In this document: positions 3,001-6,000 of the stretch, piece after piece
Layout of the letters: every line of letters starts with the position of its first letter
Position numbering within the stretch: the first letter of the stretch is position 1
NCBI RefSeq assembly: GCF_024502345.1
Contig: NZ_JALDNN010000003.1
Length of the DNA stretch: 64,000 nt
Strand: one strand, 5' to 3'
Origin: Escherichia coli
GTDB lineage: Bacteria; Pseudomonadota; Gammaproteobacteria; Enterobacterales; Enterobacteriaceae
Program-made: the position numbers

Positions 3001-6000
3001 CCCGGTTGCCTGAAAAAATGCCGTTGCAGCAAACACAAGGTGTGAACACCCCCCCCGCCCCGGCGGCTCCGGGCAAAGGAGTATCCGATGAAGCTTTCCC
3101 GGCAGACCACAAATGATACGGCTGTAATCGAAGGCACCCGCAGATTACCGACCATATCGCCTCCCAGCGAGCCACCGAAGCCAAAAAAGACGGCATGAAT
3201 TTTAATGCAGGCGTTGAGCTTGCATCTAAAAGGAACTGTGCAACGAGGACAAACATTACCATGATTGAACACCGCACAGAGATGCGCCAAACGGCCATTA
3301 AATCGCTTCAGGAAGCCGAAGAAGCATTGACGGCACTGGCTATGTCCTATGAGCTACAGCCCGATGATAAGGCCAGTTCGTGTCATCCACGGACCGGTAC
3401 TCTCTCCACGGCCAGCCAGGTACGGAAATTGCGCCGTGTCGTCGAAAAGCAGAAAACTTGAAATTCGACAAGGCGGCGGGTAGCTATTTCCTGCATGTAC
3501 AAACTAACAAGGGTTTAGCCGACGATAGAAAGGAAAAAAGGGTTTCCCCGACCGGAGAAACCCTTTTCTAAAGGTGCCATTAGCTTGCTGGCCCACATTC
3601 TGAAATGAGGGGGGTCGCCCCCCCTCTTTCAGCTACTTACCGGATTCGTAGTCCATCACAGCCGACACTTCCCGTGTACCGTCTTTCAGCCTCAGTTCGC
3701 AGAGCGAATTGCGCGTAAGCCAGGTGAATATCAACAGCGTAAGACATACTATCAATACGCACAAAACAACGGGTTGGTTCGGCAGTTTCATGGCCTTCTT
3801 CTCCTTGCATTTAAGCGGGTAAGAGGCTACTCTGAATGTGACTAGCATACAGGGGCCTCGGGTTAATTTGAAAAAATTACTCGGGGCTTTCTGCTTTTTA
3901 CCACAGTCAAACAGTGAATCTGCTGGCTGGGGCAAAAGCCTCCAGCACCGAGGTTATTATACCACCCCGCCCCTTTTAAACGAACAGATCGTTCTCCTAA
4001 ATATTTAATAAGTAAGTATTTCAGGTTTTGCTGCTTCGCAGGCTGTAACAGCAGGTGTCTGACGTAATAACTGATTAAACAGACGGATTCGAATCTCAAC
4101 ACTCAACGACGCCAGCTCGCCTGTTCCCCCGCTTCTTTCCGGCTGTAATCAGTCCGTTTTCGTACCAGCGATCAGTGACAAACGGTGAGCACGAACACTA
4201 CTGTGCCGGAGGCTGTCCGGGTAATGGGCGATTTTCTCCAGTTCCTCATCGAGGCGGGTATACGTCAGCCTCCTGATTTTCAAGATTTCCTTGTGAAGCC
4301 AGCGTTTGATAAAGGGATTGCCGGAAAGCAGTACCAGGTCTGCATCCTCCACTTCATCAAAAAGCCAGACGGGTTTTGCCGGAGTAAGGCGGTAGAGCCA
4401 GGTGCGGGAAAACTCCCCCGTTGCAATCAGAAACCAGACAACCATGCCAAGTGCGAACTCGATGACCAGCATCAGGGTAAACTGAATATCCCGGACGTCA
4501 GGCTCTCCGGTAAAGCTCATTAGGCGGTCGCCAGTTGCCAGACGCTGAATAATACAGACCAGCATCAGCAGAGCCAGTAACAGCGCCATGAGCAGCCCGC
4601 CGTTCACTTCAAAAGTAGCTTTCTGGACGCGATCAGGCGGCACCTGCTTACGGTAGCGGCCGACCACATCACCAATCATTACCCTGATGGCTATGCGTTC
4701 TTCATCGACCGTTGTTTCGGTAAATCCGGACGGGCCCGTTTCTGTTTGATTCATGTACCCTCTCCTCTCTCTGAAAAATAATGGTAAGACGCAAGCTGAT
4801 CATACCAGGTGAGCAGGAGTGGTTTTGTCGGTTAAAGGCTGGAAAAAAACGGTTAAAAAAAGAGGGAAATGACAGCAAGAAGGTGGGATGCAGTAAGCGG
4901 CTTTGGTTCCCTCCGGTTCTGTGGGGAGGAAACGGCCAGAACAGCAGACCGATACGATGGGCGGGCGCTATTTTGTATCCAGAATTCGTGCCTTTTCTTC
5001 CCGCGTCGCCAGTCGGGCACTTCCGGAACGGTCGCGGATCAGCAGTGGCTTTTCCTTTTTCCAACCAGTGATAGCCGTTTCCCCGAAACGACGCGGTGCA
5101 TTGCCATTCCAGCTGGCAATCACGTGATTATCGTGTACTTCCTTGATGACGACAGAATGAAGAGTCACCGTCTTAATGGTGGTGTTTCCCATTTTGGTCC
5201 GGGAGAGTGACCAGACGGTCATCCCCACCTCCAGCTGACTGAGTTTCATCTTTACTCCGGTAATATCGGGATACATCATTAAACGACGTGGAGACGTAGG
5301 TTAGCATAAGCACTCACAGCGGATACTGCCGCCAGATAACAGGGTGAGGTATCCGCCATGAGCAGTCTTTACGGCTGGCGTTATTCGGCCAGGGCGCGGG
5401 TAATAGACGCACGCTGACGCTGGCGCTCAGCCTTACGCTGGCTGCGGCGATATAGCGGCTTCGCGGCAGCGTAGCGACAATCTTCCGGGTGGTACCAGCA
5501 ACAGCCGCAGGGCTCAGGCTGGGGTTTTCCGGCAAGTCCGAATGGTTTCATAATGTCACCTTTTAAATGGAATAATGTTCAGGTCCCGTCCATCAGGCCA
5601 CGGGTTCATTAATGAAGCGGCGTTGCATAAACAGGTACAGATAACCCTCTGGCGAGAACATACAAAGATTCTCGGTAATACAGGCATCGAGGTACTTCGT
5701 GTCGCCAAGGAGTCGCTTAATGACAGCCAGCTGGTTAGCCGCAGACTGAATCAGCGGATAGCCATTCACGGCACGATGAATACCTGAGTGGAATAACGAA
5801 CGAGCCTTTCCAATCTTTTCCCGGGTTGCGTCCATTTCCATATCGATAACAGACTGACGCGCAACATTAATAGCATTGCCGGATAACTCCGCGAAGCTAA
5901 CCAGAGGCTTATTCATAAAAAACTCCTTCCAGGTATGTGAGCTTATTATATCAATACGGACTTTGCCCCAAACAACCCGACTCGAAATATTTTGGAAATT

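Follow-up and report, generated by a model that had tools for sequence, protein, structure and literature searches.

On the evidence of its substitution pattern p56, a 56-codon Cys/Arg-rich reading frame on the minus strand of the window (the whole stretch of Escherichia coli DNA that was analysed, 64,000 nucleotides), is a genuine protein-coding gene. Its product belongs to a narrow, indeed tiny, family whose sequence signature is common to IncHI plasmids and lytic Felix-O1-like phages. The interval that carries the gene is very probably backbone of an R27-type IncHI1 conjugative plasmid and holds two unrelated things, a hok/sok locus and a block of four genes (p107, p56, p93 and p201). Many IncHI1 plasmids match it at 100% identity over 2701 nt, and R27 (NC_002305) does so over the hok locus. 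As R27 backbone the sequence is already known, and every ORF in it, the 56-aa one included, is present in RefSeq. What the analysis adds is firm evidence for p56 as a real gene, which several records still leave unannotated. The features of the interval are the following (positions in the window):

3530-3951, minus strand: predicted hok mRNA, its ends inferred by homology to R1
3633-3791, minus strand: hok toxin CDS, 52 aa, matched by Pfam and NCBIfam and annotated WP_001447600.1, Hok family toxin
3633-3848, minus strand: 71-codon ORF from the conserved leader AUG (3848-3846), in frame with hok; Shine-Dalgarno GAGG at 3856-3859
3637-3810, minus strand: mok-frame remnant of 57 codons matching DUF5431; a TAA stop lies ahead of it and it has no obvious Shine-Dalgarno
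3840-3900, plus strand: predicted Sok antisense RNA, corresponding in position to the Sok of the aligned R1-type loci, its ends inferred
4149-4754, minus strand: p201, IncHI-specific 201-aa protein with two hydrophobic (putative transmembrane) segments by hydropathy
4968-5249, minus strand: p93, 93-aa conserved hypothetical gene, with the PGAP start and a GGAG Shine-Dalgarno; the ORF extends to 5279 (103 aa)
5313-5362, no strand: inverted repeat with 14-nt arms and a 22-nt loop, directly downstream of p56
5314-5535, minus strand: 73-aa TTG ORF in an alternative frame, not a gene by the conservation comparison
5381-5551, minus strand: p56, 56-aa Cys/Arg-rich gene, WP_000802039.1, hypothetical protein; Shine-Dalgarno AAAGGTG
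5593-5916, minus strand: p107, 107-aa conserved hypothetical gene upstream of p56; Shine-Dalgarno AAGGAG

The genes hok, p201, p93, p56 and p107 all lie on the minus strand, and every element named in a preliminary description of this DNA is present there. The p56 protein, MKPFGLAGKPQPEPCGCCWYHPEDCRYAAAKPLYRRSQRKAERQRQRASITRALAE, contains 4 Cys, 12 Lys or Arg and 5 Asp or Glu. The motif CGCCWYHPEDC, by which the preliminary description had singled it out, occupies residues 15-25 (nt 5477-5509), and the ribosome-binding site that was thought plausible corresponds to the AAAGGTG placed 5 nt ahead of the ATG (within 5549-5563). The same description had presented this frame as hidden; it is in fact annotated by PGAP in many RefSeq plasmid records, while other records, the R27 gene table among them, lack it.

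Length by itself says little about such a frame: 67 ORFs of at least 25 aa overlap positions 2500-7000, so that a 56-codon ORF alone is not above chance. It is conservation that lifts p56 above this level. The gene was found in 1261 plasmids, and the comparison with related plasmids that had been suggested as a check turned out in its favour, since its frame, ATG and Shine-Dalgarno are kept in IncHI1, IncHI1B, IncHI2 and a fourth lineage (L017), with a dN/dS of 0.05-0.13 that indicates strong purifying selection. Differences from IncHI1B fall 3/0/14 at codon positions 1/2/3 (binomial P = 5e-5 for the third-position excess), and those from IncHI2 fall 9/10/26 (P = 7e-4). These values bear directly on the proposal that p56 is a chance open frame in GC-rich DNA, the stretch being non-coding or the overlapping 73-aa ORF being the real gene; this ORF is the same-strand conflict that had been pointed out at the start. 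The abundance of short ORFs and the blank at the p56 position in several RefSeq and PLSDB records would agree with such a chance frame, and the 73-aa frame is open for most of its length in all three lineages. However, the low dN/dS in the p56 frame contradicts it, as do the 14 third-position changes among the 17 differences from IncHI1B, the conserved ATG and Shine-Dalgarno, and the existence of distant p56 homologues of similar size in phages. The 73-aa frame was rejected as a gene: between IncHI1 and IncHI2 its amino acid identity is 0.47 as against 0.73 for p56, it starts with TTG instead of ATG, and it is truncated by a premature stop in IncHI2. A chance frame is therefore extremely improbable, and we treat p56 as a gene in what follows.

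An exhaustive HMMER search of 1.84 billion proteins gave a p56 family of 14 representatives at 50% identity. These proteins of 50-80 aa have in common the signature MKP[YF]G-x2-5-GK ... C-x0-2-GCC ... R[RK]xx[RK]Kx[AE]RQ, which p56 matches, i.e. an invariant MKP[YF]G N-terminus, a three-Cys cluster C-x(0-2)-GCC and a basic C-terminal helix. Profiles of the plasmid and phage subfamilies align by hhalign at 99.4% (E 1.5e-21), a comparison that is partly circular because sequences of both kinds had gone into the profile of the exhaustive search. The independent link is the match of p56 to the phage family phrog_10765 of PHROGs (E 3.7e-4 over residues 1-52). Phage copies of the gene are found in the tRNA clusters of Ounavirinae. 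Other relatives lie on phage-like or ArdA-bearing metagenome contigs, one adjoining an ArdA-like gene and DUF1380, others a large phage-type gene and an HNH gene; the genes around these distant homologues are not homologous to the IncHI neighbours. The word-indexed homologue search with p56 returned only 7 clusters, all IncH-like. With the distant family member P0010 as query, tblastn against plasmids again found IncHI plasmids only, so that within PLSDB the family is confined to this one plasmid group.

The AF2 model of p56, built on the 14-sequence alignment, has a mean pLDDT of 71; a helix at residues 36-55 reaches about 90 and the N-terminal two thirds are of low confidence. The single Foldseek match of this model in BFVD (E = 4) was rejected, and p56 has no match above cut-off in Pfam, NCBIfam, PADLOC or PDB. 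Zinc-finger models gave one trace, zf-CCHC_6 with E 0.031 for one member of the family only, and the family has neither four conserved Cys/His positions nor a model match that would make it a zinc knuckle or zinc ribbon. Since only three Cys are retained family-wide, C25 and H21 being variable, the family gives no support for a classical zinc site with four ligands from a single chain; metal might be bound through oligomers. A lipoprotein or signal peptide was considered and rejected (no hydrophobic N-terminus, no lipobox). The idea that the basic tail is a type IV secretion signal was dropped because the phage homologues carry the same tail.

The genes p107, p56, p93 and p201 follow each other in this order and in one direction, as they do in IncHI2 and IncHI1B, and the block as a whole is conserved across IncHI1, IncHI1B and IncHI2 under purifying selection (dN/dS 0.05-0.26 overall; p107, 0.12-0.26; p93, 0.08-0.15; p201, 0.22-0.26). 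p107 is probably co-transcribed with p56, and the p56 homologue of L017 likewise has a p107 homologue ahead of it. Between IncHI1 and IncHI2, identity is 53-85% in coding stretches, falling lower at the 3' end of p56 (43%) and in one window of p201 (37%), and mostly 18-48% in intergenic stretches. Because intergenic DNA is not conserved between these two groups, we dropped the ideas of a single-stranded DNA promoter and of a small RNA. The inverted repeat downstream of p56 is not followed by a T run and its stretch is not conserved in IncHI2 (32-45% identity). A scan of positions 3300-6200 with Rfam gave no match besides sok.

The earlier account of p201 as an uncharacterised protein of 201 aa with two transmembrane segments agrees with our data: Kyte-Doolittle hydropathy, with a threshold of 1.6 in windows of 19 residues, gives hydrophobic segments at roughly residues 46-76 and 89-115, and no family scores above its cut-off. 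By tblastn p201 is present in 1274 plasmids and is about 43% identical in IncHI2; the word-indexed search found IncHI relatives only, and its AF2 model has a pLDDT of 61.6. The ORF of the next gene has 103 aa at full length. Its best start is the internal ATG at 5249, with a GGAG Shine-Dalgarno, which yields 93 aa. This p93 has 66 homologous clusters, all hypothetical and none with a Pfam domain. p107 matches phrog_8549 (E 6.7e-10), annotated as function unknown. For the four proteins together, no Pfam, NCBIfam or PADLOC model scored above its cut-off, matches in PHROGs were to unknown-function families only, and PDB searches, whether by single sequence or by profile, brought no meaningful hit (the lowest E-values were 0.24 for p93, with haemagglutinin, and 0.79 for p201). 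A literature search on R27 and hok, whose matches were dominated by "Hokkaido", found no paper on p107, p56, p93 or p201.

The second component of the interval is related to the hok/sok locus (parB) of R1 and to flm/srnB of F, which are type I toxin-antitoxin systems acting by post-segregational killing. The initial assignment to hok/sok is borne out by matches that exceed the curated cut-offs of Pfam, NCBIfam and Rfam alike. Scores of 68 bits for Pfam HOK_GEF (PF01848; cut-off 22, E 5e-19) and 124.1 bits for NCBIfam NF007279 (cut-off 73, E 1e-36) place the toxin in the Hok/Gef family. It has 52 aa, an N-terminal hydrophobic helix and a conserved Cys in its C-terminal part (...SLCELR...), and it aligns with the Hok of IncF. 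Rfam sok (RF01794) matches 3789-3950 over the full model length (89.1 bits, gathering score 59, E 6e-20). The label "textbook Hok" is thus right for the toxin and wrong for the leader ORF, which is in frame with hok and not R1-like. An R1-type mok, i.e. a leader ORF of about 70 codons starting about 58 nt upstream in another frame than hok, was not found at the IncHI1 locus. Because the leader AUG lies 57 nt from the hok AUG rather than 58 nt as in IncF/R1-type loci, the leader ORF is fused in frame to hok, giving the 71 codons of an N-terminally extended Hok. The exact 71-aa sequence occurs in more than 1000 contigs under the names Stm or putative stable plasmid inheritance protein (by annotation only), and some records call this form "Stm"/HokB. 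The mok frame persists as the remnant of 57 codons, which scores 66 bits with DUF5431, the Pfam family matched by R1-type Mok, over profile positions 14-70 of 70 only.

The predicted hok mRNA has an extended -10 promoter, TGGTATAAT, at 3956-3964, a 5' element GGTGCTGGAGGC at 3938-3949 with a 3' partner near 3573-3581, and a terminator hairpin at 3534-3569 followed by a T run. In the minimum free energy fold of 3951-3525, nt 3-9 are paired with the segment directly upstream of the terminator (z = -4.35), and a long-range pairing of the 5' (tac) and 3' (fbi) elements is predicted by this model for the full-length mRNA. On the opposite strand the predicted Sok promoter (-35 TTGCAT at 3805-3810, -10 TACTCT at 3828-3833) is weak by consensus, with 3/6 matches in each box. 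The Sok hairpin and U tail lie at 3852-3899, and the plus-strand fold of 3836-3903 consists of a 5' tail, a long hairpin and a U run (-24.8 kcal/mol, z = -4.0). The sequence therefore predicts a cis-encoded antisense Sok transcript over the leader translation start.

In the control that we propose, a stable hok mRNA, whose 5' and 3' ends are predicted to pair, encodes the 52-aa membrane toxin, and the short Sok from the opposite strand would cover the leader Shine-Dalgarno and AUG. Sok would thereby block leader translation and with it Hok synthesis. By analogy with R1, unstable Sok would decay in plasmid-free segregants and Hok would kill the cell. Since the leader AUG is in frame with hok, the ribosomes under Sok control would read straight into hok, and this read-through may yield the 71-aa form, open the hok start, or both. 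The deviation of the IncHI-type locus from the mok/hok frames of R1 is relevant when the R1 regulatory model is transferred to other hok loci.

The hok/sok locus looks like a module independent of p107-p56-p93-p201. The alternative is that the four neighbours and hok/sok form one system, in which p201 would modulate the Hok pore or immunise against it and p56 would regulate the locus. This would agree with the order p107, p56, p93, p201, hok kept in IncHI1 and IncHI2, with the nearly identical sets of plasmids that carry p56 and p201, and with the predicted membrane location of both Hok and p201. But IncHI1 and IncHI2 share 80-95% identity in the hok region, as against about 43% protein identity for p201, and a similarity so much higher than that of the neighbours suggests a separate history of hok. 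Related hok loci occur in more than 5000 plasmids, far more than carry p56 or p201, and hok/sok is self-sufficient in R1 and F (PMC9841398). At loci L003 and L004 IS elements separate or truncate hok, and the neighbours are not lost; the phage homologues of p56 have no hok nearby. L017 speaks on both sides: its hok has the opposite orientation to p56 and it lacks p93 and p201, yet the p107-p56 pair again adjoins a hok locus, so that p56 and hok might be loosely associated. No functional link between the neighbours and hok/sok appears in the data examined. On balance a single system is very unlikely, and we retain two modules that lie side by side.

As to what p56 does, our tentative preference, held at somewhat less than even chances, is for a small nucleic-acid-binding accessory factor, regulatory or anti-defence, that would help a mobile element to establish itself in a new host, possibly in a metal- or thiol-dependent way. 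In a sharper version p56 would serve specifically in anti-defence or host takeover, being brought in at an early stage by plasmids after conjugation and by lytic phages after infection, and it could counter a defence that targets nucleic acids or tRNA. The sharing of the family between conjugative plasmids and virulent phages points in this direction, as do the relative next to an ArdA-like antirestriction gene and DUF1380, the embedding of the phage copies in tRNA clusters and, in IncHI, the run of small co-directional genes that adjoins the relaxase operon. Leading regions are also rich in anti-defence and uncharacterised small genes, some of them phage-related (PMC11541004). Against this, p56 resembles no known anti-defence protein, PADLOC included, and neighbourhood is weak evidence for genes so small; we consider this version rather doubtful. 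More ambitious, and unlikely when taken as a whole, is a joint reading in which p56 founds an undescribed class of very small effectors deployed on cell entry by IncHI plasmids and virulent Felix-O1-like phages and, separately, the leader was fused in frame to hok through two different 1-nt deletions. If it were true, p56, with its MKPYG N-terminus, tri-cysteine cluster and arginine-rich helix, would bind host or defence nucleic acid and so blunt defence or reprogramme expression, the phage copies doing so from inside tRNA clusters, and this hok clade would couple Sok control to the toxin by read-through of a single ORF instead of a mok/hok overlap. Returning to the establishment factor, the presence of the family in lytic phages makes p56 a reasonable candidate for screens of small anti-defence and establishment factors. 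Multidrug resistance, including mcr and that of MDR typhoid, is carried to a large extent by IncHI1 and IncHI2 plasmids, whose maintenance and establishment genes are for this reason practical targets.

Compared with known systems, the four-gene block recalls the leading-region and anti-defence islands of Samuel et al. 2024 (PMC11541004), which are also made of small, co-directional, mostly uncharacterised genes adjoining transfer genes; the IncHI1 run likewise includes hok/sok, a ParB-like gene and DUF905, DUF957 and DUF3085 genes. The block abuts the Tra1/relaxase operon, beginning directly after the mobI-relaxase-traD operon with its genes pointing towards it. Some 16 kb separate it from the presumed oriT, which in R27 is placed beside mobI by PMC10838148. 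Unlike in the leading-region islands, the relaxase operon of IncHI1 stands between the presumed oriT and the block, and no conserved non-coding element of the Frpo/ssi kind was seen, the intergenic DNA not being conserved.

Felix-O1-like phages (Suspvirus, Mooglevirus) carry the counterpart of p56, phrog_10765 (PHROGs v4), as a small ORF within their tRNA cluster. The two agree in the N-terminus MKP[YF]G..GK, in the CGCC motif and its placement, and in the basic stretch that closes with ARQ or ERQ, and their sizes are similar (56 aa against 70-80 aa). They are nevertheless identical at only some 30-33% of positions; C25, the fourth Cys, is missing from the phage proteins, which have four inserted residues ahead of the basic helix, and the setting is a tRNA cluster instead of a plasmid gene block. 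For p201 the nearest known family is the two-transmembrane Pfam family DUF5676, with two adjacent hydrophobic helices in both. The match is weak (residues 53-111, 19.3 bits), below the gathering cut-off of 27.6 bits, so that membership was rejected; p201 moreover has additional soluble helical parts at its N- and C-termini.

The IncHI1 toxin locus was compared with R1 hok/sok (parB) and F flm/srnB. Hok shows about 60% identity to its counterparts in the IncF-type loci of the alignment, and both kinds of locus have a leader with SDmok-AUG, the hok start region GGAGAAGAAGGCCATG, a Sok placed in the same way with hairpin and U tail, and a predicted pairing of the 5' and 3' ends of the mRNA. The 5' UTR of IncHI1 lacks segments of about 7 nt and about 6 nt that are found in IncF. 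In R1, whose mechanism involves 19 Mok codons upstream of hok (PMC9841398), mok is an ORF of 70 codons in the +1 frame, whereas here an in-frame leader-hok ORF of 71 codons takes its place. By its sequence the IncHI1 locus is thus a relative of hok/sok that is variant in the mok feature.

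All the relevant genes lie on the minus strand, between 3400 and 6100, and would be transcribed in the order p107, p56, p93, p201 (each named after its length in amino acids) and hok. They are listed here with their surroundings.

5593-5916, minus strand: p107, 107-aa gene
5381-5551, minus strand: p56, the 56-aa ORF of the preliminary description
4968-5249, minus strand: p93, 93-aa gene, whose ORF extends to 103 aa
4149-4754, minus strand: p201, 201-aa gene
3633-3791, minus strand: hok
1572-2777, minus strand: gene for a ParB-like DNA-binding protein, 401 aa (HTH_ParB, E 1.5e-5; phrog_1033, E 8e-18)
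~6077-6844: IS1 copy, directly upstream of p107
6953-7918: corA, after IS1

Many plasmids of 190-410 kb from E. coli and Salmonella, typed IncHI1/MOBH, share the 2.7-kb stretch with 100% identity. For the hok locus (441 nt) identity to R27 (NC_002305) is likewise 100%, and RefSeq records such as NZ_MW800634 annotate all five genes. The content of the region is the known R27 backbone; our analysis adds the proof that p56 is a gene, a small p56 family common to plasmids and phages, and an in-frame hok leader. The ParB-like gene, downstream of hok in a co-directional block common to both, is of a kind typically seen in plasmid establishment regions. On the plus strand a small gene (WP_000569545.1, 3195-3461, annotated as 3261-3461) converges on the 3' end of hok and matches phrog_19934, of unknown function (E 5.9e-11). 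Beyond IS1 the window carries a chromosomal-type corA-ysgD segment oriented as hok; R27 has no IS1 at this spot upstream of p107 and the opposite corA-ysgD orientation relative to hok, which suggests an IS1-associated inversion.

By itself the p56 ORF is not above chance, since 67 ORFs of at least 25 aa overlap positions 2500-7000. tblastn detects it in 1261 plasmids, of which about 1000 are IncHI2 and carry it at 73% identity, and its ATG and AAGGTGA Shine-Dalgarno are retained across IncHI1, IncHI1B and IncHI2. Three pairs among these groups give dN/dS values (Nei-Gojobori) of 0.048, 0.128 and 0.111, and differences per codon position are 3/0/14 and 9/10/26 (binomial P 5e-5 and 7e-4). It is by this conservation that the ORF proves to be a gene. 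The preliminary description had named a frame not conserved in homologous plasmid regions as the result that would speak against it; instead the frame is kept in IncHI1, IncHI1B and IncHI2. The competing 73-aa TTG frame (5314-5535, minus strand) was rejected: it shows 47% identity and an early stop in IncHI2, and only frameshift variants enter it. Two database proteins, P0004 and P0007, are such variants, with the p56 N-terminus followed by the alternative frame. Downstream of p56, at a distance of 19 nt from its stop codon, there is an inverted repeat (5313-5362; arms of 14 nt, loop of 22 nt); it has no T run, and its conservation was looked for in IncHI2 and not found.

In RefSeq p56 is WP_000802039.1, "hypothetical protein", annotated for example in NZ_MW800634. 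Among the matches listed, about half of the tblastn rows show no feature there, and it is absent from the R27 gene table. p56 is present in some records and missing from others, so it is real but inconsistently annotated database content.

p201, p93 and p107 are all under purifying selection (dN/dS 0.08-0.26). The 201-aa protein does contain two hydrophobic segments, as expected of the two-TM protein first described; it is restricted to IncHI plasmids (1274 records), with ~43% identity in IncHI2. The 66 homologous clusters of p93 are all hypothetical, and p107 matches phrog_8549, of unknown function. In the PLSDB RGI track the IncHI2 homologue of p93 (L003, 4323-4604; L016, 3290-3571) is labelled "Brucella suis mprF, defensin resistance, 100% identity". 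This label looks like a database artefact, because a 93-aa protein cannot be MprF, and it could inflate resistance-gene counts.

A word-indexed search with p56 returned IncH-like clusters only. Among PHROGs, p56 matches phrog_10765 over its full length (E 3.7e-4), an independent link between plasmids and phages. By tblastn ~47 Felix-O1-like phages (Suspvirus, Mooglevirus and others) carry a p56-like ORF of 70-80 aa inside a tRNA cluster, starting with MKPYGRHGKVEIASCGCC... followed by a basic stretch. These phage relatives of p56 (L005, 2501-2713; L006, 1501-1743) have tRNA genes on both sides. In some records their 3' ends, as annotated, run into a tRNA-Arg gene, and several phage records annotate the tRNA and leave the ORF out. 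Searched exhaustively with HMMER, 1.84 billion representatives yielded 14 proteins of the family, whose alignment yields the signature MKP[YF]G-x(2-5)-GK ... C-x(0-2)-GCC ... R[RK]xx[RK]Kx[AE]RQ. Profile-profile comparison of plasmid-type and phage-type subsets gave a 99.4% probability, a value that is partly circular because both came from one mixed profile. One distant member adjoins an ArdA-like gene and DUF1380; others come from phage-like contigs that also carry an HNH gene or large phage-type genes. Around the distant members no neighbours of the IncHI block were found, except in L017, a divergent fourth lineage (p107 homologue and hok locus). Of the cysteines, just three are conserved throughout the family; C25 and H21, both within the motif first noted, are IncH-specific. 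AF2 is confident for the C-terminal helix (residues 36-55) only, and no relatives were found in Pfam, NCBIfam, PADLOC or PDB. Our best guess is that p56 may be a small nucleic-acid-binding accessory factor of mobile elements, possibly metal- or thiol-dependent.

The killing gene recognised from the sequence is indeed hok (Pfam HOK_GEF, 68 bits, cut-off 22; NCBIfam NF007279, 124 bits, cut-off 73), and sok, named with it, is matched by the whole length of the Rfam model at 3789-3950 (89 bits, gathering score 59). The locus can be aligned with IncF/R1-type loci, from which we infer the ends and promoters of both transcripts; the hok mRNA elements, the predicted terminator hairpin included, are placed by this alignment.

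3956-3964: inferred extended -10, TGGTATAAT
3938-3949: inferred hok mRNA 5' element, GGTGCTGGAGGC
3846-3859: SDmok-AUG, i.e. Shine-Dalgarno and AUG of the leader
3789-3804: hok start region
3534-3569: predicted terminator hairpin of the hok mRNA
3805-3810 and 3828-3833, plus strand: putative Sok promoter, TTGCAT and TACTCT, at the position equivalent to the R1 Sok promoter
3840-3900, plus strand: predicted Sok RNA with 5' tail, long hairpin and U run (z = -4.0)

The 427-nt hok transcript is predicted to fold so that its 5' end pairs with the stretch immediately preceding the terminator (z = -4.35), a pairing similar to the tac/fbi lock known from hok mRNA in R1.

In IncF/R1-type loci mok, of 70 codons, begins at a conserved leader AUG and is read in the +1 frame (Pfam DUF5431, 140 bits); this AUG precedes that of hok by 58 nt. 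R1 Mok has its first 19 codons ahead of hok (PMC9841398). The window and IncHI2 differ: there the corresponding AUG precedes hok by 57 nt (ATG-CTAG versus ATGTCTAG), and this spacing puts it in frame with hok, so that an ORF of 71 codons results (3633-3848 in the window, minus strand). A TAA closes the mok frame, of which a 57-codon remnant is left that matches DUF5431 positions 14-70 only. The 71-aa product is found on >1000 contigs, called "Stm" or "putative stable plasmid inheritance protein" by some depositors. L017 likewise has a 71-codon in-frame ORF; there the R1-like spacing after the AUG is kept and 1 nt is deleted just before the hok AUG (GAAGTAGCCATG versus GAAGAAGGCCATG). Two different 1-nt deletions thus lead to the same in-frame state. 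The leader start would still be under Sok control, and ribosomes would run from the leader straight into hok.

The block order is common to IncHI1, IncHI1B and IncHI2, and p56 adjoins hok in L017; this adjacency leaves a small residual probability to a functional link between hok/sok and its neighbours. Between IncHI1 and IncHI2, identity is 80-95% in the hok region, mostly 53-85% in the neighbour genes and mostly 18-48% in intergenic DNA. In L003 and L004 hok has been severed from its neighbours by IS elements, related hok loci occur without p107, p56, p93 and p201 in >5000 plasmids, and no hok was seen near the phage p56 homologues. On these grounds we regard hok/sok as a module of its own.

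In NZ_MW800634 the small minus-strand gene block begins right after the operon of mobI, MobH relaxase and traD, and points towards it; the R27 oriT adjoins mobI (PMC10838148). Leading-region islands are enriched in hok/sok-type TA, uncharacterised small genes and phage-related families (Samuel et al. 2024, PMC11541004; bioRxiv 10.1101/2025.08.07.668861). In this setting the block of small genes resembles the islands of Samuel et al. 2024 and is a candidate leading region.
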